Shown here piece by piece: positions 1,782 through 47,660 of a stretch of 64,000 nucleotides of DNA. The stretch is from NCBI GenBank assembly GCA_021613535.1, contig CP075492.1, forward strand, positions 6,138,001 through 6,202,000, given 5' to 3'. The notes beneath the pieces were generated by a model. The model searched no databases. It had not been told where the DNA came from and was given only the letters and a program-made list of their open reading frames with translations. Numbering within the stretch: the first letter of the stretch is position 1; each line of letters starts with the position of its first letter. A program made the translations under genes and the position numbers. This DNA is from Adineta vaga (lineage: Eukaryota > Animalia > Rotifera).

Positions 1782-2240
1782 TTACCATCTTTTATACGGT
1801 AAAAATTTACCAGACATGTTTATATTGACCCTGGGTGCATCCACTATTGTTTCATCTTTATCAATTTTAATTGTAAAATCTACTGCAGACATGATTCCAT
1901 CACCGAATTTTTCATGAATAACTTCTTTCATTGGAACACCATATTGAAGTAGAATTTCATAAAATCGATAGAGTAATGGATCAGTTGGCGGTAAGGATGG
2001 AAGAATAGATCCTTTATGTGGTGGATGCATAAATTCATTCATTTGTTCTTTTGTCAAATTGATACCAAGTATATTCATCAATCTTTGATATTCTTGAAGA
2101 TCAGCACATGTTGCTTGACCATAAAATAATGCAGCCACCCAAACGTCATCTCTACCAAGTTGTTTTCCAATATCAGTAAATGTTAATTGTTTTTCTTCTT
2201 TAGCCTTTAATAATAATTTCGATATATCAGATACATTCAT
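1782..2240 (-). CDS. cynS: Cyanate hydratase (cyanase)
   Basis: N-terminal HTH-like domain, then PPTDPLLYRFYE, IHEKFGDGIMSAVDF and GKFLPYKRW signatures. Intronless CDS with likely ATG at 2240. Confidence 0.95.
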   Translation of the reverse strand: MNVSDISKLLLKAKEEKQLTFTDIGKQLGRDDVWVAALFYGQATCADLQEYQRLMNILGINLTKEQMNEFMHPPHKGSILPSLPPTDPLLYRFYEILLQYGVPMKEVIHEKFGDGIMSAVDFTIKIDKDETIVDAPRVNINMSGKFLPYKRW

Positions 2241-2374
2241 TTTTTTATATCTGGAATACAATGCGTATGTCTACGTTGATATTTATTTTCGAAAACCAAA
2301 CACAAAATCTAACTACTCCAATATTTACAAACAGCTAGATTAAGAGAAATGAATAAGTGAACATTCGACTTTAT

Positions 2375-19879: not shown

Positions 19880-21160
19880 CCGTACTTTTTCTTTTTGTAT
19901 AGAATTAATTATATTTTTGTGTGTGTGTGTGTGTGATAATCATTTTCTTCTTCTTTGTAGCTCATAAAAGCACATATATTCATTTATTTTTTTGTTACTA
20001 GTAAAAAAGAAGAAGAAGAGAGTTTTTTCTCATTTGTATAGAACTATATTTAACACGTATATCCGGTTGAGGGGAGAAAAAAAAAGATAGACACTTTCAT
20101 TATCATTCTTTGAACATCTTCTTTTTACTTACTTACTCAACACACTAAAGGTTAGTATACCGAAAGAGAATACAATCAGACAATACGATGATTTCGAATC
20201 GGAATGATGAGAATGATTCGATCTATAATGCAAAGAAGAACAGGTAAGTTGAAAGAACGAGAAGATTTCTTCTTTTTAATAAAAGTTGAATCCTAGAGTA
20301 TTTCAGGAAATGAAACAACTGAGTTGGATGAATATCACCATCTACATAGAATGAAACTTTGATGAAAAAGAATTTTTGATTATATATAAATAGATCTATT
20401 TAATTTTCTTTATGTACTAGTGATAATTTGATCAATCGTCGACATAGTATAGCTCATACAAATTTTCGTAAAGCTATCTATCGAAGTTTATCATTCTGTG
20501 CAGATAATGATGGAATTAACGACAAGATATCTTATGTTAAATACTGTGTGAAAGTATTTTTTTCTTTGTCTTTTCATTGTATTTATTGGTGCAGTTATTA
20601 AATTTATATGGTCACAATAGTAGTGTGCTTTTATTTTCTGGAAATAAATGAGAACTATAAATGTTTCTATACTTTGTATATTTAGAGCTCTGTGCCAACG
20701 TTGACAAATGTATATGACGGATTGAATAGTTGCATTTTGTATATTTAGGAAAGCTCCTCTTACAATCACAGAATCTTCTTTGAAGATTAGTAGAGCTTTG
20801 ACTAATCGTTTCTTAGATGTATTTATTTGTATGTCCAATTGTATAAAATGACACCTTTTACTTCCTTCTAATACAATAGATTAACAGACTGAAAACTTAT
20901 TTAAGATACATGATCATTCTATCAGCAACACTGACTATACTAAAGACGAAAGGAGTAACTTCTATATTAGTCTAAGAAGAACTAAGTAGTTGCACATTGT
21001 TGTCGATCTATTCCTTACTATGAGTAAATCTCAAATTATTATTGATTGAGTGACGAAGAATAAATATTAACACGTCGGAAAAAACCTAGTTTGATCTTTT
21101 TTTAGTAATTTTTTTTTCTTCGATGTGAGATATTTTTGGTTGTAGCAGAAAGACTCATCG

Positions 21161-23460
21161 ATGGTATACGCGGAAGAAAGAGAACGGAATGATTCAGATT
21201 ATTTACGCACAATTTTTTTTCAGATTATCAGGAATAGCATTTTATAGTGAAGGTTCATTTGATAGAATGAAGTTCGTACTCCTTCTCTTGTATCTTTTAA
21301 ACCGTTTTTCAATACTTATTCGTCATATATATGCATGTATCAACAGTAAGACGGTATATAATAAATGTGATATTGCAAAGAAAAATCCTGTGTTATTTGG
21401 TATCGTTTGGTTCACTCGAAATGTTAAAATAAATGATCGTATAGAATCCATTGGAAAACTTCGTGAAATTGTTAATCATTTGGAGATATTCGATAATATT
21501 GACACATTTCAGCAGTACATTGATCAATTATCTAAAAACGATCGTTTGATACTCGTTCTTAGTGATGTTAAAAATATACAAATCATTCGTTTGATTCATC
21601 ATTTACGACAAATATCGTCGATTTATTTATTTTGTACTGATAAATTTGAAAAACAACAGTGGATAAACGATTTTAATAAGGTAATACACCTTTCAAAGAA
21701 AATTTATCATTACTATAAAATACTATAACATCGATTCTTCAAACTGATCAGTATTTATTGCGATAGCAAGAAAAGGATAGCGTGATCTTTTTAAAATATT
21801 CGTTTATATCCTCTCATTTTCTTATACTAAGATATATATCGCTTGGATGTATAACTTTGTGAAATGACTTCTTTTTTCATGTAGGTAAAAGGAATTTTTC
21901 ACGATCTTGATGAATTGATGACTCGAATTAAGAAAGATCAAGAAATCCAAAAACAACTAGAAGAACCATTGGAAATTCGTGTTTTCACTGTTACAGATTA
22001 TGAAGATGGATCAACAACAAGTCTTAATGGAAAATTTTTCTATGCTCAATTACTACTTGAATATATCCTCTCCATTGAATCAAATGAACAAGATAGAAAT
22101 GAATTAATTTCTCTTTTAAAACAAGAGTATAGTGAAAGCCCTACTGAATTGTCGAAAATTGATGATTTTGAAAAAAATTATTCATGTGAAAATGTTCTAA
22201 AGTGGTATACACGTGAATCTTTCTTCTATAAAATGTTGAACAAATCTCTTCGACAACAAAATATTCATATGATATTTCTTTTTCGTTCATATATAAATGA
22301 TCTTTGTCAACAACTATCAAAAAGCCAATCGAGCATTCCAATGACAAGTTATCGATCTCAATTAATGTCAAAAGATGAATTAGATTGTTTATTGAAACAT
22401 GTAAATCACTATATTTTTATTAACTCATTTTTTTCGACAAGTCTTCAACGAGATGTTGCTTCATTTTATATGGATGATGGAAATTCACAAGATAATTTAG
22501 TCAAAATTTTGTTTGAAATTTCTGCAAAACCACATCGAAATGAGAAAACATTATTCTCAAATATTAGTTTGCATAGTGATTTTGACATTGAAATGGAAGT
22601 GCTTTTTGCACCGGGTTGTATTTTTCGATTGAACGATATTAATTGTGATAAAAATCAGATATGGACTATTCGAATGACTTTATGTATTGATGATGAACAT
22701 GATTTAAAACTTGTATTCAATCAGCTGAAACTTCAAAATGAAATGCAACCAAAAGATTTGCAGACATTGGCAGAATTCTTAGTAAAAATGGGTAAATTTG
22801 ATCCTGCTGAGAAATACTTTTACCGTTCCATTAAACAACTTCCGCCTGGTCATCCTTCCCTACTCCGTGTTTATCGAGGCCTCGCTGATATTGCTTCACA
22901 AACCGGTGATCTTGATCGAAGTCTTCAATGGCAGAAAAAATTGGTATCACTTCAACGAACTATCTCGAATACCATGACAATTAGCAATAGTGAACATATT
23001 GAATCGAATGGTAAGATTCTAATCGAATATCAGAGAGATGTGCACATATGATTGTCTTTCTATTCTAGTATCAGCAGTTGTTAAGAAACGCCGAGTTTAT
23101 CCAAATGGGGATGTTTATGAAGGAGAACTTATGAATGGTCTTTATCATGGATATGGAGTTTATGTTTGGAAAAATCATGATCGATATGAAGGAATGTGGC
23201 AAAATAATCGTCGCGAAGGACAAGGTACATGGATTTGGGGAGAACAAACATCTTCGGCAGGTGATCGATACTGTGGGGAGTGGTCTTTGGACAAGAAACA
23301 TGGAAATGGAGAATATTTTCAAGCACATGGTGACGTATATAGAGGACAATTTAAAGAAGATCAGCGTCATGGAACTGGTATCTATAAAACCAAAGATGGT
23401 CAATGTTTTTATGTTGTTTATGATCATGATAATACGGTCTCTCGTGAAGTTATTAAATAG
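21161..23460 (+). CDS. Receiver-like domain + mono-ADP-ribosyltransferase domain + TPR + MORN repeats
   Basis: ART motifs WYTRESFFYKMLN, SYRSQ, FFSTS and EMEVLF; a TPR pair; MORN repeats (YEGxWxxxxRxGxG) after an intron near 23011. The 5' end is uncertain. Confidence 0.8.
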
Positions 23461-23930
23461 TTCGAGAAAGTATAAAACGAATCTTTCTGTACATCTTTTA
23501 ATCTGATTAGTATTATTCACACTTTCATTCATCGTAGGAAAGGAAAAATAACTAGACAACGACTGTATATAATATATCCCCAAGAGAGAGCACGTTTTCT
23601 ATTCAGTATTTTTTGTATTATTCTTGGGAAAAGAAGCGCTAAAAAAAACGTCGCCCTCTCTCATAATTCTCAGATACTGTATTATGCACGATGATGTTTT
23701 GTTGCTTATAATTGCAGTCACATCATCAAAAAATTTCTATCAACATAAAGCAAAAAATACCGAACATAGTGTTTTATGTATTATATTTCATGTTATTTCA
23801 TCAGAACAAAAACGATTAGACAACATTTTTTACTGACGTCATTGCGTCAATACCAAAGCGCCTTGCGCTATTACAGGTGAGTAACATACTTTTGAAATTA
23901 CATATACAACACACCGATCTATAACTATGA

Positions 23931-24956
23931 ATGAATTCCAACACAAAATCAGAACATTTACTGAAGATTCAAAATCTCAGTATGGAAATGAGAAACGAAT
24001 TGTTACAACACATTCAACAGATGTCGATCGAACGAAATAAAAATGAAACAAAATCGAACTATCGTCCTAAGTATAATGATGAACACTACAACAAGTTAAT
24101 TTGGAGTTCAACTGAATACAGTGACGTTGAAAACATTCAAGTACAAATAGTCGTAGTTGAAAATGATGATCAACGTGATTTATTTGATTATATTCGACAT
24201 ACTGTTTCATCAATGCCTCAATGTCAAGTTCCTGGACGAGTTCTATCTGTTTTAGTTTATGATCAATATTCGAAATGTTATCTTGGAATATTACAATTAA
24301 CAACTGATTTATTGAAAAGTGAACATAAAGATACATTTATTCATCCAAATTTAGAAACAACAAAAAGAAATCGATTGAAACAACATATACGTGATCATTC
24401 TGTCAATTTATCTATTTGTGTTCCTGTTCAACCATTTGGATTCAATTTTTGTGGTGGAAAACTATTAGCAATGCTTGCTTTTTCCACTGAACTTCATGAC
24501 TTCTATCAAAAACGATATGGTTATCCAATTGGATTGGTTACGACAACATCAATACATGGCAAATCAATTCAATATGATCGATTAAAACAATTGAAATTCA
24601 TTGGATGCACTAAAGGATTTGGCATTAGTCACATTCCAACTTCATTTATTGATCGAGGAAAAATTTATCTTAAACAAAACTATCCCGAATCTTTACATCG
24701 AAAACAAGCAAATTGGCAAATATTAAAAATTTTAGTAGAAAAATTAAAGATCGATAGTACAGAAGTATTTTTTCATGGTAATCAACGAGGAATCTATTGT
24801 GGTTGGACTGGAACAAATGCGAATGAGTTTCTTTTGAAGAGAATGATGAATTTCACTCAAGATAAACTTCAATCAGTTGATCAATGTGGACAATTTTGGA
24901 AAGAAAGATGGGCAAAACAACGATCGACGCATTTAAATAAAATGAAAAATTTATAA
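23931..24956 (+). CDS. DUF4338 / Druantia DruA-like protein
   Basis: Motifs PGR..VLVYD....YLGILQL, CVPVQPFGFNFCGGKLLAMLAFS, TTTSIHGKSIQYDRL and IGCTKGFG..H. Intronless 341-aa ORF. Confidence 0.8.
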   Translation: MNSNTKSEHLLKIQNLSMEMRNELLQHIQQMSIERNKNETKSNYRPKYNDEHYNKLIWSSTEYSDVENIQVQIVVVENDDQRDLFDYIRHTVSSMPQCQVPGRVLSVLVYDQYSKCYLGILQLTTDLLKSEHKDTFIHPNLETTKRNRLKQHIRDHSVNLSICVPVQPFGFNFCGGKLLAMLAFSTELHDFYQKRYGYPIGLVTTTSIHGKSIQYDRLKQLKFIGCTKGFGISHIPTSFIDRGKIYLKQNYPESLHRKQANWQILKILVEKLKIDSTEVFFHGNQRGIYCGWTGTNANEFLLKRMMNFTQDKLQSVDQCGQFWKERWAKQRSTHLNKMKNL

Positions 24957-25329
24957 GTCTTTGAGGAAAATATTGTTGAGTAGTTATAATAATGATTTCA
25001 ATTGAAATTTGTTTAGTTTCCGCATCTAGACGAAGAGTAGAAGTAAGAGTAGATAATCCAATTTATTTCTCTCACGTCTACTTTTAATTCAATTCAGATA
25101 TTTATTAACCTCTTCAAATGATGTCATCGATAGATTGTCGAAAACAAACTATCTATGTGTATTTTTTAAATTTCTTTTATTATACTCTCATTTGTTTTGA
25201 AATAAATCAAATGAGATAATTTTGCATGAATAGATGCTTATTTTTTGTATATTAATTAGAATTAAGTAAAAAATAAAAGTTTCTTGATATTTAATATATT
25301 TTCGTATAAATCAGTCGTTAATGACAATA

Positions 25330-25882
25330 TTATAAGATTTGCCAACGTCCTAATTCGGTTCCACAATTTGGACAGTAATGCACTCGAGTCTAAAAGAAAT
25401 ACATGGATAACATAGTCGAGTAAAAATAATGAACTTCGAATGATTTACTTTGATGTCTCTAATACAAAACGGAATTAAACAGCATCCAAGCCAAAAACCA
25501 ACAAGAACAAGAACTAAACAAATTATCCAAGCCAATGCACCATTCGACTCTTCTATACGAGTTACAATAGTTTGGTTACATCTCTGACATGTACATTGAA
25601 CGGGTGTTTGTCCGAAATGATATTGAACTGGAACTACTGTAGTATCGGTAGATGGATTTACATCAAACTTGACTCTTATATCTTTTTGAATTGTTTCTAT
25701 TTATTGTAAATATAAAATACGAAATTCAATAAAATGCATGAAAAATACTGACCATAACCTGGTGGTGGTTCTATTGGTGTTTCTATAATAGCAGCAGCAG
25801 CAGCAGCAGGAGGATGTTCGTTGATTGGAAGTGTTTCAACTTCATTCTGTCGCTCCGCTTCAACCGATTTCATGTCCTTCAT
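25330..25882 (-). CDS. LITAF-domain protein, 3 exons
   Basis: PPPGY N-terminus, then PVQCTCQRCNQTIVT, hydrophobic GCCLIPFC and HYCPNCG in the last exon. Confidence 0.9.
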
Positions 25883-26339
25883 TTTAGTCTTGTATTTGCC
25901 TTGTATTCTTTAATTATCTGTATAAATGATCAATAAATATCGGCGAAATGTCGCTTTTTTCTCCTCGTTTCTCTATACATCATTAGGACGTGATGAGTAA
26001 AAAAGGAAAAAATGATCATATCGTCACAGATTTCTTTCTTTTCTGTTCCTCCTATGTTGTCTGTCTAATTTCAAATGAAAAGGTGAGTAGGTGTCACATA
26101 GGTCGTTATGCGAAATCTAGTTGATTCATTGAATTAAGAACGTAATACAGACGTAGGTAGATTTTTCGTGAATATGAGTCTTATTGTCCGAAAGAAACCT
26201 ATAACAACAGTGAAAGTACGACACCTTTTATATCTATATTCACTTGATTCGAATTGATCGATCCAATCGTTTTAACGCATTTTATCGGAGTATATTTTTT
26301 TAGAATAGTCCCAATAAAGACAAAGGAATAGTGTAAAGT

Positions 26340-28374
26340 ATGAATTTGGAAAGAATTAAATCGATCCCTGCTTCAAAAACTACAATATTATTAGTTGACG
26401 TTCAAAATAGCGAAATTGATAATGAACATAAAGACAAGTTGCCTTGGTATTATAAACAAATTACTAAAGTTTGTTTACCGAATATGAAACGTATAATTGA
26501 TATTGGACGTTCATTAGATATGGAAATTATGTATACTACAATTGAAAGTCTTACTTCGAATGGGCGAGATCGAAGTTTAGATCATAAATTATCGAATATA
26601 TTCATACCGAAAGATTCTTATTTTGGTCAAGTGATTGATGATGTTGCACCACATGATGATGATATTTGGCTTAAAAAAACAAGTTCAGGAGTCTTTAATT
26701 CTACGAATATTGATTATTTATTACGAAATCTTCAAAGAAATTATCTTGTCATCATGGGATTTTTAACTGATCAATGTGTTGATATGGCTGTTCGTGACGC
26801 TGCTGATAAAGGTTATTATGTTATTTGTATTGACGATGCCTGTGCAACACATACAAAACAAAGACATGATAATGCATTAAATGCTTTCAAAGGTTATTGT
26901 ACTATTCTTAATACAGAACAGTTTATTCAAAAGGTTCAAGGTTTGATCACATATATGCTTAAGGTTGTCTTCATTTAATTGATTTCTTTTAGAATGCAAT
27001 GTTATGTCAGATAATGTGAATGAAATTTCAGCTGATAAAAAACATTCTATCAATGCAATGTCTTTAACGACCTTAGTAACGACTGATTTAATTGGTATTA
27101 CACGGGGTCGTTCAATTCCTACTTATGATCTTGATAAATATTATCATACTGGTTGTGGATGGGTACCAGCCGATAGTGCTTTGACCCCACAGGATATCAT
27201 TGCCGATTCAAATCGTTGGGGATCACATGGTGATTTACGTCTTTTACCCGATCGAAATTCTCGAGTAAGAATTACGAATGGACCAGATCCAAAATCTACT
27301 CCCTTGGATTATATTCATTGTGATATAGTAGAAACGGACGGACAAACATGGGATTGTTGTCCTCGAGGATTGCTAAAGAAAGAGATGGAATATTATGAGA
27401 AAGAATTTGGTATGAAAATCAATGTAGCATTTGAACATGAATTTACTTTACTAGCAAAACATGATTCAATCGCTCAACCCTCGTTTTCATTACGATCTCA
27501 ACGTCAACAAAGTGAATTTTCAAGTTGGTTAATGGCATCACTTCAAGTTGCTAATGTTCAACCTGAAATGTTCTTATCGGAATATGGACAAGATCAATAT
27601 GAAGTCACTTGTCATCCATCAGATCCTTTAACAGCTGCTGATCGTGCTGTTAATATTCGAGAAATAACTCGAGATATTGCAAGACAATTAGATTCAACTG
27701 TGTCTTTTTCTTCTTTAACATCGATCAATGGTATCGGTAATGGTGTTCATTTACATATTAGTATTGATGATCTCAATGGTAAACCGTTATTTTACGATGA
27801 AAATCGTCCTTTTAATTTATCAACAATTGGTGAATATTGGTCTGCTGGAGTTCTTCATCATATAGGTTCACTGTGTGCTATTACAGCACCTACACCTGTT
27901 TCTTATTTACGTTTAAAACCACATCATTGGAGTTCGGCATATAGTTGTGTAGGATATCGAAATCGTGAAGCAGCTATACGAATTTGTCCAACGGTTGATT
28001 TCGATGAAAAAACGATTCCGAAACAATTTAATTTAGAATATCGTCCCATGGATGGAACATCTTCTCCACATTTGTCATTGGCAAGTATTCTATTTGCTGG
28101 TAGATATGGTATTGAAAATAAATTAGAATTAACATCGATTATTACAATGGATCCACATTTATTGGACGAAAATGAACGTAAACAAAAAGGTATTTTACCA
28201 TTACCAAGTAATCTAAAAACTGCTTTGGGAAATTTGAAAAATAATCAACAATTTCGAGAATATTTACCAGTAGCTTTGATGGAAACTTATTTCGCTGTGA
28301 AATATAAAGAATTATCATTAACAAAGCAATACGATGATGAGACACTTTGTCAACATTATTCACGTATTTACTAG
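26340..28374 (+). CDS. Isochorismatase-family cysteine hydrolase fused to a glutamine synthetase-family ligase through intron 26941-26992
   Basis: D-K-C triad (VDVQN, KKTSS, TDQCV); GS motifs EHEF, EYGQDQYE, GNGVHLH, NREAAIR and EYRPMD. Removing gtttg...ttttag gives the in-frame junction KVQ-E-CNVMSDN. Confidence 0.9.
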
Positions 28375-44138: not shown

Positions 44139-45167
44139 TTAAAAATTCTCGTTACTTTTGCCGTACCATAGTCCTTTTCTGCAGTAAGTAATCGATGGCA
44201 TATCTATGGGTTTTGAAGGAGGAGAAGTCATTGGCGGGGTCGGTGTCGGAGATTCCATTATTTTATCAATTTCAGTAATTTCAATATTACCTTTACGATA
44301 ACGTAAATACATGTATATAACAATAGAGATAACAGGGCAAAGGTAGACTAAGCATTTCCAACCCATACGTGTGATAATATTGTAGAAACGTTGAACATAA
44401 AAATGATAGAGATCTCGCAATCTGTGGTTCAGGGATAAAACGGCAAAACTATCCTTTTCTAAACATCGTCGAATAAATTCGTTTCGCATATCCATCACAT
44501 GTCCATGTTCAAACAATAACGCTTTACGATCATTGTTTTCCAATGATTCACGACGAATACGTCCCATAAATAATATACCACGTTCGAAGAAATCACGCAT
44601 TCCACTGTTCATCAAACGAGAATGTTCGAAGAGCTCATTGATCAGGTCTCGCCGTTGATGTTCTAGCTTTTCTTCACAATGTGTCAAGATTAACATCATC
44701 TTTGGACTTAATTGTGTAAATTTGGATTTGAAATTGAGCATGGCTGTAATATCATCTGCATTAATACCTTGATGAACACTGAACACAAGACCAAAGAGTG
44801 GAACAGTATTATCGATGAATGGAATACTAAATTGATTAATTAAAAGATTATGATTAGTTATTTTACATTTGCTTAATTTATTTTGTTGATCGAATATGTC
44901 AGGTGTATCGATGATACGCAAACCTCCTATTTGATGTGGTTGTGGTTTTTGTGTTGGATGATGTAGTAATGATATAGGTGGGCAATAGAGACTATCATCG
45001 ATGACATTGACGATAGTCGTTTTTCCTACTCCTGAACGACCAAGGAGAATGATGGTTTGTTTTGGATGATCAGGAGGAATAATGTATTGTTCGTCTTTAT
45101 CACGGTGGCGTCGAAGATCTTCAAGATCAAAACTTGGTCGCTCATCCAATGGTTCAGACGAAATCAT
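44139..45167 (-). CDS. AIG1/GIMAP-like GTPase with C-terminal TM segment
   Basis: GRSGVGKT, IIDTPD and LILTHCE; hydrophobic LVYLCPVISIVIYMYL near the C-terminus. Confidence 0.85.
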   Translation of the reverse strand: MISSEPLDERPSFDLEDLRRHRDKDEQYIIPPDHPKQTIILLGRSGVGKTTIVNVIDDSLYCPPISLLHHPTQKPQPHQIGGLRIIDTPDIFDQQNKLSKCKITNHNLLINQFSIPFIDNTVPLFGLVFSVHQGINADDITAMLNFKSKFTQLSPKMMLILTHCEEKLEHQRRDLINELFEHSRLMNSGMRDFFERGILFMGRIRRESLENNDRKALLFEHGHVMDMRNEFIRRCLEKDSFAVLSLNHRLRDLYHFYVQRFYNIITRMGWKCLVYLCPVISIVIYMYLRYRKGNIEITEIDKIMESPTPTPPMTSPPSKPIDMPSITYCRKGLWYGKSNENF

Positions 45168-45551
45168 CTATGTGTAAATATAATTAATCTGAAAAATAAG
45201 ATCAGCAAAGAGTTCATTTGATTAACACAGATAAATCACACTCGTCTTCATCTATTAAACATTCTATAAGTGTTGAGAAATTCAACGGTAATCTACACAT
45301 ACTTTAGAAAAGGTCAAGGAAAGAGAAAAATTGATTAAAGCACAATCGTGCAACTGTTATTCGATATAAAAAAAACTTCTTTTTTTTTAATAAATCACAT
45401 TCAACACACTTCATTAATAACTAAGAATCTTTAAAGAAAATGGTTTGTGTAATGTATGAGCCTCAACAAAATTCTGTCCTAATATAAACAATGATTTCCA
45501 ATAGCAAACGAGTATGTTCGTAGGTCCCCATTACTGTTAGCAAGAAGTTCA

Positions 45552-46343
45552 TTAAAGTAGAATACAACCGGATGATTCTTTTTTAACACGATGTATATTG
45601 AAAGTATTTTTCACATCAAGACGTGTGACATGATTGAGAAACGTTTGACGCATGTCAAGAATATTTTCGATTTGGAACTCAGCGGATTTATAGTTTGGGT
45701 GAGTTCTTAGTTCTGGACGTAATGAACCCATATAAAAAATTCTATCTTTAAAAAATTCCTTGAAACCTCGTTGAATTACTTCTTTTGATTGAAAAAATTC
45801 AAGCATTTTGTTACTTCTTTGATCTGGAAGTGATTCTTCAGAATGTGTTACCAGTAAACAAATATACGGACGAAGATTTGGATAATATTTAATTACGAAC
45901 TCTATTGAATCAATATCTTCGACATTCACATGGCCCAGAAAACTAATCACAAAGGCGAAGAGATGCATATTCGTAACATCCTTGTTAATACATTCATCAA
46001 TAGCAGCCTTAATTCGTTCATTGGATAACGCAATATTATTTCCTTTTACCTTATCAAATAAACCAGGTGTATCGACTACATTAAAGCAATATACATGATT
46101 TTCTTCGTTCATTATTGCAGCAATCGGATGAATAGTGACTTCCTTTGTAGCAGAATGAAGTTTGGCTTCAGGTGGTACATAAAAAGGATCAGCAAGTACT
46201 TTTGCCACTGTCGTTTTTCCAGTGCGAGTTCTGCCCATGAGCAGAAGATTGTATATAGTAGTTTTTTGAAATTTATAGCTGTTTTTAATTTCCTTCTGCT
46301 TACTAATTTCTGCCATTATTTGTTCGAAAGGAACATCATCCAT
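45552..46343 (-). CDS. AIG1/GIMAP-like GTPase with CaaX tail
   Basis: GRTRTGKT, VVDTPGLFD and LLVTHSE; ends in GCILL. Confidence 0.88.
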   Translation of the reverse strand: MDDVPFEQIMAEISKQKEIKNSYKFQKTTIYNLLLMGRTRTGKTTVAKVLADPFYVPPEAKLHSATKEVTIHPIAAIMNEENHVYCFNVVDTPGLFDKVKGNNIALSNERIKAAIDECINKDVTNMHLFAFVISFLGHVNVEDIDSIEFVIKYYPNLRPYICLLVTHSEESLPDQRSNKMLEFFQSKEVIQRGFKEFFKDRIFYMGSLRPELRTHPNYKSAEFQIENILDMRQTFLNHVTRLDVKNTFNIHRVKKESSGCILL

Positions 46344-46844
46344 ATCTATGTTCGACCGATTCTTAATTCCTGAAAAACAAATCTTTCAATCTACTATCCA
46401 GAGATTTTTTAGTACTGTTTTCCTTCTCACAATCCATGTTAATTCAAAGAGGATTTCATGAAACAAAATATTCACAAATGTTTGTAATTGAAAGATGTAA
46501 AAACCGAAAAGATACTCTAATGATAATATGGTGTTGAAACTATGTCTTAACGAATTGCAAGTATACAAACCTGAGCTTGCAATTTCCCGTTGATCAGTTC
46601 AAGTGGAAGGTATTTTTGAGCCAAATTGTAAGGTGAAAATTATAACGCAATTATTTTCTGTGTACGGAGTAGCGATAAATGAATCTGAAATATATAAGAA
46701 TCCCACTATTGATTCGTATGAATAACAAATATCTGAGATTTATTTTGAGCCGAAAAACTACGTTTAGTCTCGTCATAAAATAACAATAAATGATAGTTTT
46801 GAAGATCAAGTATGTTCTCCTATTTATGATTGTTATTTACACAT

Positions 46845-47660
46845 CTAAAGAGAACAAAACCATCGTCCACAAGAACAATGATAACAAAATCGTCGAAGAT
46901 GAAAACAATGAGAATCTCTGTATAAATCTTCAAATGTTATTGGTATATTACTTCCATTCTCTTGACACCTCCAAATAAATTCGTTTCGCATATCCATCAC
47001 ATGTCCATGTTCAAACAATAACGCTTTACGATCATTGTTTTCCAATGATTCACGACGAATACGTCCCATAAATAATATACCACGTTCGAAGAAATCACGC
47101 ATTCCACTGTTCATCAAACGAGAATGTTCGAAGAGCTCATTGATCAGGTCTCGCCGTTGATGTTCTAGCTTTTCTTCACAATGTGTCAAGATTAACATCA
47201 TCTTTGGACTTAATTGTGTAAATTTGGATTTGAAATTGAGCATGGCTGTAATATCATCTGCATTAATACCTTGATGAACACTGAACACAAGACCAAAGAG
47301 TGGAACAGTATTATCGATGAATGGAATACTAAATTGATTAATTAAAAGATTATGATTAGTTATTTTACATTTGCTTAATTTATTTTGTTGATCGAATATG
47401 TCAGGTGTATCGATGATACGCAAACCTCCTATTTGCTGTGATTGTGGTTGTTGCGCTGGATGATGTAATAATGATATAGGTGGACAATAGAGACTATCAT
47501 CGATGACATTGACGATCGTCGTTTTTCCTACTCCGGATCGACCAAGGAGAATGATGGTTTGTTTTGGAAGATCATGAGGAATAATGTATTTTATCCATCT
47601 TTATCCCGTTGGAGACGTAACTCGTGAGTAAGACATTCATTATCAGTGCACTTGTCTGAA
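46845..47660 (-). pseudogene. Paralog of the GTPase at 44139-45167, frameshifted near 47595
   Basis: 46973-47434 is identical to 44472-44933. The P-loop GRSGVGKT is present upstream, but the 5' frame breaks at 'gatggataaaatac'. Confidence 0.75.

Follow-up and report, generated by a model that had tools for sequence, protein, structure and literature searches.

Druantia type I is defined by a druE helicase gene and druB-D next to druA, a layout that we also see at three of the loci collected for comparison (L131-L133). One preprint (10.1101/2024.04.14.589459) describes a PacBio 'm6A' call that is made at CAGCTGNC only when E. coli expresses the methylase-free Druantia I, and it does not assign the adenine mark to DruA. 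No measured activity for any DUF4338 (DruA) protein was found in the literature examined. A second point of reference is Mom of phage Mu (PDB 8bv8), which the available portion of PMC13219725 describes as a Gly-tRNA-dependent adenine N6 modifier with an HTH-like insertion, at about residues 175-209, that is required for activity. Jumbo-phage Mom domains fused to endonucleases are described in the accessible part of PMC7824862. Within the bdelloid rotifers, the corresponding part of PMC8885841 presents N4CMT, a bacterial N4-cytosine methyltransferase, as an epigenetic writer and reports 17,886 SMRT '6mA' sites in Adineta vaga.

The window, meaning the whole 64-kb stretch of A. vaga DNA that was analyzed, contains a gene that is a DUF4338 family member and is not a Druantia system. 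Its open reading frame (ORF) is intact and intronless and occupies positions 23931-24956 of the forward strand (341 codons). The product matches the Pfam profile PF14236 (DruA/DUF4338; E = 9.6e-28) with 97.6 bits against a cut-off of 27, over profile positions 11-295 of 297, and the PADLOC DruA model matches it as well (E = 5.1e-22). These matches and the ORF listing agree with the first-pass annotation, which had recognized an intact, intronless DUF4338-type ORF and had proposed the profile search as a check. The coding features are as follows.

23982..24956, forward strand: coding sequence of 324 aa, DUF4338/DruA, predicted GNAT fold, pI 9.3 (from the Pfam match, the ortholog start, the structure model and the contigs).
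23931..23981, forward strand: in-frame 17-codon extension of the ORF, probably untranslated.

The protein has the motifs GGKL, T-x-S-x-x-G-x-S-x-Y and G-x-T-x-G in common with DruA of Druantia I. However, it is only 25-27% identical to that protein and about 85 residues shorter, it has what appears to be an animal promoter, and it is nearer to giant-virus copies. No druB-E partner is present among the neighboring genes. The first-pass annotation had found no DruE in the window, and this holds in a six-frame regular-expression scan of the window for helicase motifs and in a PADLOC scan of 19 long window ORFs (40 ORFs of at least 150 aa are present). Two weak PADLOC DruC matches (E = 1.5e-4 and 2.1e-4) fall on window proteins more than 17 kb from the ORF, and these proteins also match other coiled-coil models.

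The neighbors of the gene are host genes: an ART/TPR-like ORF, a MORN ORF, a LITAF gene, an isochorismatase-glutamine synthetase gene, an AIG1 GTPase and a WWE-ART gene. The LITAF gene is seen spliced in RNA contigs, as expected from the earlier description of an ORF between spliced animal genes, and no viral genes are seen beside the ORF in the window. The GC content of the ORF (0.30) is like that of the window, whose GC profile has no step, and its GC3 is 0.18 versus 0.16-0.21 in four neighboring genes. A recently inserted endogenous giant-virus segment was considered and rejected on the grounds of the single gene, the window-like GC and the host neighbors.

RNA contigs from the gene at 26340-28374 (forward strand) join 26938 to 26991 across a 52-nt GT..AG intron, and this splice links isochorismatase and glutamine synthetase in frame, with no stop, into a 660-aa fusion protein; the gene may represent two bacterial operon neighbors fused by an intron. 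At 21885-23460 (forward strand), a MORN-repeat ORF overlaps the ART/TPR-like ORF that precedes it, and a small intron is plausible near 23011-23070; this arrangement suggests an ART-TPR-MORN fusion gene, and the ART/TPR-MORN join is not seen in the RNA contigs. A cyanate lyase at 1782-2270 (reverse strand; Pfam E = 2.3e-30) is probably another foreign gene. Three tandem AIG1-like GTPase ORFs, two of them nearly identical, lie at 44139-47600 (reverse strand; the domain scan covered the first).

Orthologs of the DUF4338 protein occur at 63-81% identity in eight named bdelloid taxa: Adineta ricciae (the closest named protein, 81%), A. steineri, Didymodactylos carnosus, Rotaria sordida, R. magnacalcarata, R. 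socialis, R. sp. Silwood1 and Silwood2. The dN/dS comparison proposed in the first-pass annotation indicates purifying selection, with values of 0.14-0.24 in 6/6 pairs formed by the window gene and three metagenome orthologs, L048-L050 (Nei-Gojobori; dS 0.43-0.84). Strain variation within the ORF amounts to 11 variants, of which seven are synonymous and four non-synonymous (pN/pS 0.15). The 1-3 kb pieces that carry L048-L051 have no neighbors in common with the window beyond a generic TPR match. Three A. steineri records (P0495, P0059 and P0267) have models that extend the protein or join parts of it to EGF-like or other exons, and these gene models probably reflect errors of annotation or assembly.

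An ORF of this kind could also end up among animal genes through contamination, through chimeric assembly or as a viral insertion that is recent and dead. No listed DNA contig reaches from the ORF into a neighboring gene: one contig covers 23916-25122, and breaks fall at 23831-23915 and 25123-25187 among the listed pieces. However, DNA runs X6 and X2 cover 30/30 bins of 21000-27500, the X6 depth of 30-36 over the ORF is like that of its flanks (about 30), and an identical protein sits on a 20.35-Mb contig. Together with the orthologs in eight taxa, a dN/dS of about 0.2 and a window in which no viral neighbors are seen, these observations make an artifact or dead insertion extremely improbable. 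The DNA runs also contain loose ends at 24053 and 24466 and, at half depth, a 9-base deletion at 25166.

Contigs from five of six probable RNA runs, which come from two studies, cover the ORF, and the gene is apparently transcribed. Their extents are 24003-24956, 23951-24956, 24456-25217, 24003-25021, and 23959-24152 with 24201-25021; X22 is the sole probable RNA run with no contig on the ORF. No run is recorded as RNA, and the label is a guess backed by spliced neighbors: each of the five ORF-covering runs removes at least one neighboring intron, whereas the DNA runs do not. The contigs of X17 and X18 extend 3' to 25021, and one X18 contig has three unmatched letters at 24153, a variant site. 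The following features flank the coding sequence.

23920..23924, forward strand: candidate TATA box (TATAA), the sole TATAA within 200 nt upstream in 4/4 sequences.
23949..23951, forward strand: initiator-like TCA, 31 nt downstream of the first T of the TATA box, with transcription predicted to start near 23951.
24957..25217, forward strand: 3' UTR, reaching at least this far in one run (X19 contig 24456-25217).

The TATAA is found at -62, -58, -59 and -58 from the ATG in the four upstream regions, where it occupies invariant alignment columns. By chance, a TATAA would start within any one 4-nt slot with a probability of about 0.01, and the four sequences are related and hence not independent. 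A conserved GAATT follows the TATAA, and 31 nt on is a pyrimidine-purine initiator, for which the triplets in L048-L050 are TCA, TCG and TTA. The RNA contig that reaches furthest 5' starts at 23951 (X16), and others start at 23959 and 24003. Transcription probably starts near 23951, although contig ends cannot prove a start. The orthologs begin at a Met equivalent to ATG 23982 (residue 18 of the 341-aa ORF), which bears out the start codon suggested earlier and makes it the likely one. Because of this ortholog start, and because ATG 23931 lies upstream of the predicted transcription start site, the 17-codon extension is probably untranslated.

The first-pass annotation had reached the same ATG by a different route, a 5' intron at 23877-23952. 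Both of the upstream signals that it listed are present (TGACGTCA at 23834 and a CAG/GTGAGT donor at 23877), but neither is conserved. TGACGTCA occurs three times in the window and in 0/3 of the orthologous upstream regions, and it was rejected as a conserved element. A GT[AG]AG match is found at -105 in the window and at -116 in L050, positions that do not align, and is absent upstream of L048 and L049. No contig joins 23876 to 23953 in the six probable RNA runs, whose contigs leave 23604-23950 uncovered. We dropped the intron model because the conserved TATAA lies within the proposed intron and the position of the donor is not conserved. As judged from these alignments, the intron is unnecessary, and the same ATG would follow from a TATA/initiator promoter.

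With its intact orthologs, purifying selection, host-like composition, RNA coverage and host flanks, the gene is a domesticated host gene. The earlier description of a horizontally acquired, domesticated, stand-alone gene is thus upheld by the bdelloid orthologs, the selection, the GC3, the core promoter and the RNA coverage. Its label as a defense gene stands only as a family name, since there is no Druantia partner and the nearest relatives with genomic context are giant-virus genes.

The AlphaFold2 model of the protein is confident (pLDDT 93.5, pTM 0.88) and predicts a GNAT fold. The best 50 VIA rows are all GNAT-fold entries (Z 8.7-10.6), with a tie among KKT23 (Z 10.6), Naa60 (Z 10.3) and Mu Mom (8bv8_A, Z 10.3). 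The Mom alignment (rmsd 5.1) covers 185 residues and is the longest among these 50. Foldseek finds GNATs in the PDB, none at E <= 0.001, and giant-virus proteins from Faunusvirus, Yasminevirus and Dasosvirus in BFVD (E = 4e-25 to 2.6e-13). An ESM Atlas search returns DruA clusters only, mostly from phages. A PDB sequence search with the window protein gives 0 matches, and NCBIfam and E. coli blastn searches yield nothing useful. The assignment is consistent with the available text of PMC10853773, which likewise classes DUF4338 as a GNAT. The protein features are listed below, with conservation expressed as the percentage of rows that have the residue among 296 family domains, including bacterial and phage domains.

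24120..24872, forward strand: predicted GNAT acyltransferase core (residues ~64-314 of 341), the span of the VIA GNAT matches.
24453..24467, forward strand: GGKLL motif at the start of the motif-A helix (G176 and K177 100%, L178 99% conserved).
24543..24575, forward strand: TTSIHGKSIQY, the end of strand 5 and the next helix, with candidate active-site residues (T205 99%, G210 99%, Y215 100% conserved).
24639..24770, forward strand: helical insertion (residues 237-280) between the last two core strands, from DSSP of the model.

Seven residues (G176, K177, T205, G210, Y215, G225 and T227) are kept across bacteria, phages, viruses and rotifers. The canonical acetyl-CoA motif A of GNATs is R/Q-x-x-G-x-G/A. 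This pattern has no match in the window protein, which has a family-specific GGK at the helix start instead. All nine of the family proteins checked are basic (pI 9.05-9.35). The helical insertion is a candidate DNA-binding element in the model, and the 185-residue Mom alignment suggests that it may be the equivalent of the HTH-like insertion of Mom.

A search for proteins of near-equal length gives 105 hits among 647 candidates, consisting of a block at 57-81% identity and then many nameless proteins at 35-53%. A representative search gives 797 clusters at E <= 0.001, and alignment-based scans locate 47 IMG/VR loci and 80 metagenome loci. When viral contigs are scanned with the window protein, P0025 and P0029, the result is either no locus or the L001 contig alone. 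A giant-virus core gene is present in the fetched flank of 44/47 IMG/VR loci and 46/76 non-rotifer metagenome loci. The first-pass annotation had stated that the family also occurs in phages and giant viruses, and both kinds are found.

Most of the viral copies are long: 45/47 IMG/VR loci encode fused forms of at least 606 aa. The long forms are fused to EndoVII/HNH or LAGLIDADG nucleases (for example, L002:6681-9035 and L085:9860-12469; within L002-L047), and in 34/43 capsid-bearing loci the DUF4338 ORF starts at most 500 bp behind the major capsid gene. The literature examined contains no functional characterization of these viral proteins. Short stand-alone viral copies (~325-340 aa) are a minority, and they are the nearest relatives with genomic context (L001 and L055; probably also L056 and L052). 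The L001 copy adjoins DNA polymerase B on a 624-kb contig, the L055 copy adjoins a capping enzyme, and each is 42% identical to the rotifer protein. At 48% identity, L052:4237-5211 is the closest non-rotifer copy with context. Its surroundings are a gene cluster of 51% GC that encodes sugar-modifying, collagen-like and GNAT proteins, and the part covered contains no core viral marker. A viral fusion is 39% identical to the rotifer protein; the values are 27-29% for the copies in marine T4-like phages and 25-27% for bacterial or plasmid DruA. Giant-virus copies and the rotifer protein have the motifs QPFGFN[FY]CGGKLL and SI[HN]GKS[IV]QY in common, but the viral copies are mostly nuclease fusions behind a capsid gene, whereas the rotifer gene has neither a nuclease nor viral neighbors.

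T4-like cyanophages and pelagiphages also carry DUF4338 genes among replication genes (L137:4737-5858 and L136:4608-5906), and the accessible text of the Phold preprint mentions DruA-like proteins in six cyanophages. A cyanophage gene deposited as 'methylcarbamoylase mom' belongs to phrog_19197, not to the Mom PHROG.

The phylogenetic analysis began with 378 hits. Span filters removed five of these, bacterial L135 among them, and a further 77 were omitted because they were at least 95% identical to others, leaving 296 rows. Three trees were rooted on bacterial DruA: FastTree with all 296 rows, LG+G4 with 66 rows and a quick LG+C20 analysis with 45 rows; the two subsets were picked after the first tree was seen. 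In the two IQ-TREE trees, the rotifer clade (SH-aLRT 99-100) is nested within the giant-virus clade (95-98). It groups with the short viral forms (support 92-99), and its placement is the same in all three trees. The comparison with bacterial, phage and viral homologs that had been proposed in the first-pass annotation therefore puts the rotifer genes among giant-virus sequences. The branch order among the short forms is a polytomy, and the nearest rows without a name or context are P0021, P0024, P0025, P0061, P0027, P0028, P0030, P0031 and P0033. Two prokaryotic hits are labeled as MAGs (P0074, on a 4.6-kb contig, and P0443).

A transfer from a giant virus to a rotifer is the most economical reading of donor and direction from these comparisons, and we consider it probable. 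The transfer likely predates the split of the sampled bdelloid genera. The animal TATA/initiator promoter was, with good probability, gained after it.

A different source, closer to the emphasis of the first-pass annotation, would be a bacterial Druantia druA or a phage copy transferred directly and still serving in anti-viral defense. This would fit the DruA family membership (Pfam, PADLOC) and the capacity of bdelloids to take up bacterial genes, of which N4CMT is an example in the available text of PMC8885841. One of two approximately unbiased (AU) tests also fails to reject a grouping of rotifers with bacteria (p = 0.093; LG+G4, 66 rows). However, the other rejects it (p = 0.033; mixture model), and a grouping with phages has p = 0.045 (LG+G4, 66 rows). 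The rotifer protein is also 42% identical to giant-virus copies and 25-27% identical to bacterial DruA, the window yields no DruE in the scans above, and two pattern scans of 185,579 prokaryote genomes, which reach close relatives only, detect 0 relatives. Direct bacterial or phage descent is consequently very unlikely.

The gene could instead have arrived by way of another eukaryote (a protist, alga or fungus), or giant viruses could have taken the short form from eukaryotic hosts. Nameless proteins do emerge next to the rotifer clade or as its basal branches, the short forms make up a polytomy, and one of the nameless proteins, P0061, stops abruptly after its LK motif at what could be an intron boundary or a contig end. 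Against such a route, no non-bdelloid eukaryote is named among the 105 near-length and 103 longer hits, viral diversity is far deeper than rotifer diversity, and the rotifer gene has no coding intron. We regard a eukaryotic intermediary or source as unlikely and retain direct capture from a giant virus.

For the function of this domesticated bdelloid protein, of likely giant-virus origin and predicted GNAT fold, the favored reading predicts acylation or aminoacylation of a DNA base, most likely at adenine N6, a proposal that we hold at even odds. The first-pass annotation had offered no biochemical mechanism. The DNA-substrate reading is drawn from context, namely from the fusions to nucleases, the operon setting in Druantia, the adenine signal seen with Druantia I and the Mom-endonuclease fusions. 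By this analogy, a nucleic-acid substrate for the rotifer enzyme has about an equal chance of being right or wrong. In the source lineages, the DUF4338 domain would be the marking half of mark-and-cut systems. In giant viruses, its cutting partner would be the fused nuclease (HNH, EndoVII or LAGLIDADG), and in Druantia I it would work beside the DruE helicase. Giant viruses already have a short form that lacks the nuclease, and this is the form that rotifers carry today, likely passed to bdelloids before the sampled genera split. The rotifer enzyme would then act alone, with no nuclease, to mark either its own DNA or foreign or mobile DNA by placing an acyl or aminoacyl group on a base, likely adenine N6, as phage Mu Mom does.

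Like Mom, the rotifer protein is basic and has relatives fused to nucleases, and its model has a GNAT fold and a helical insertion late in the core that may correspond to that of Mom. However, they belong to separate families (PF25680/phrog_1384 for Mom and phrog_19197 for DUF4338). An hmmsearch comparison scores about -1 bit, there is no Mom family hit in Pfam or PHROGs, and profile-profile alignment (hhalign) gives a probability of 0.1-0.2%, equal to the reversed control, with a shallow Mom alignment (Neff 3.4). In a manual register, the essential Mom residues R111, S124 and R151, as well as D149, do not appear to be kept, and only Y159 appears to have a conserved counterpart, Y215. The sole R/Q-x-x-G-x-G/A match in Mom is at residue 31, away from its motif-A helix near S124. 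The rotifer protein is therefore not a Mom-family member by sequence, and it may nevertheless work like Mom.

The same origin and domestication would also be compatible with an ordinary acyltransferase whose substrate is a protein, a tRNA or a small molecule, as in detoxification. GNAT substrates are diverse, and acetyltransferases of the protein N-terminal, histone and polyamine types are among the best structural matches. A protein substrate would also accord with the available text of PMC10853773, in which a DUF4338 domain fused to DndF is suggested to be a protein-targeting co-effector. In addition, there is no sequence link to Mom and no nuclease partner near the rotifer gene. What speaks against an ordinary substrate is the recurrence of the family with DNA nucleases or helicases in giant viruses and Druantia loci, the unexplained adenine signal described for Druantia I in the accessible text of 10.1101/2024.04.14.589459, the missing canonical acetyl-CoA motif and the presence of the helical insertion. 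On balance, we judge the ordinary acyltransferase possible but rather doubtful and continue to favor a DNA base as the predicted target.

For the DNA-modification reading, N4CMT offers an earlier example of a DNA-modifying enzyme that was acquired horizontally and has been retained throughout Bdelloidea. The two differ in fold, chemistry and donor, and N4CMT gained introns and a chromodomain, whereas the DruA-like gene gained neither. Title and abstract searches, in which most subscription journals fall outside coverage, give no report of DUF4338/DruA in rotifers or any animal. The terms DUF4338, PF14236, DruA and Druantia have 0 hits in the bdelloid transcriptome supplements covered (12/16 files of PMC11258130 and one file each of PMC10809525 and PMC12220480).

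An ancient giant-virus-to-animal transfer kept in all eight of the named bdelloid taxa would be unusual. Most described bdelloid foreign genes are bacterial, fungal or plant-like. If the enzyme does not modify DNA, then the gene is a well-supported but more ordinary gene capture. As a small, single-domain, nuclease-free DruA under purifying selection, the protein is easy to test. A more tentative proposal is that bdelloids write a bulky acyl- or aminoacyl-derived adenine mark on DNA by means of the captured enzyme. If true, this would be an animal DNA base modification outside the methyl series, a kind not yet known in animals. It would bring Mom-type base hypermodification to an animal and give bdelloids, in addition to N4CMT, a second DNA-marking system of foreign origin. 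The '6mA' calls made by PacBio for bdelloids would then need a chemical re-check, and the adenine mark could explain part of them. In addition, this 324-aa stand-alone protein would show what chemistry DruA carries out in Druantia I.
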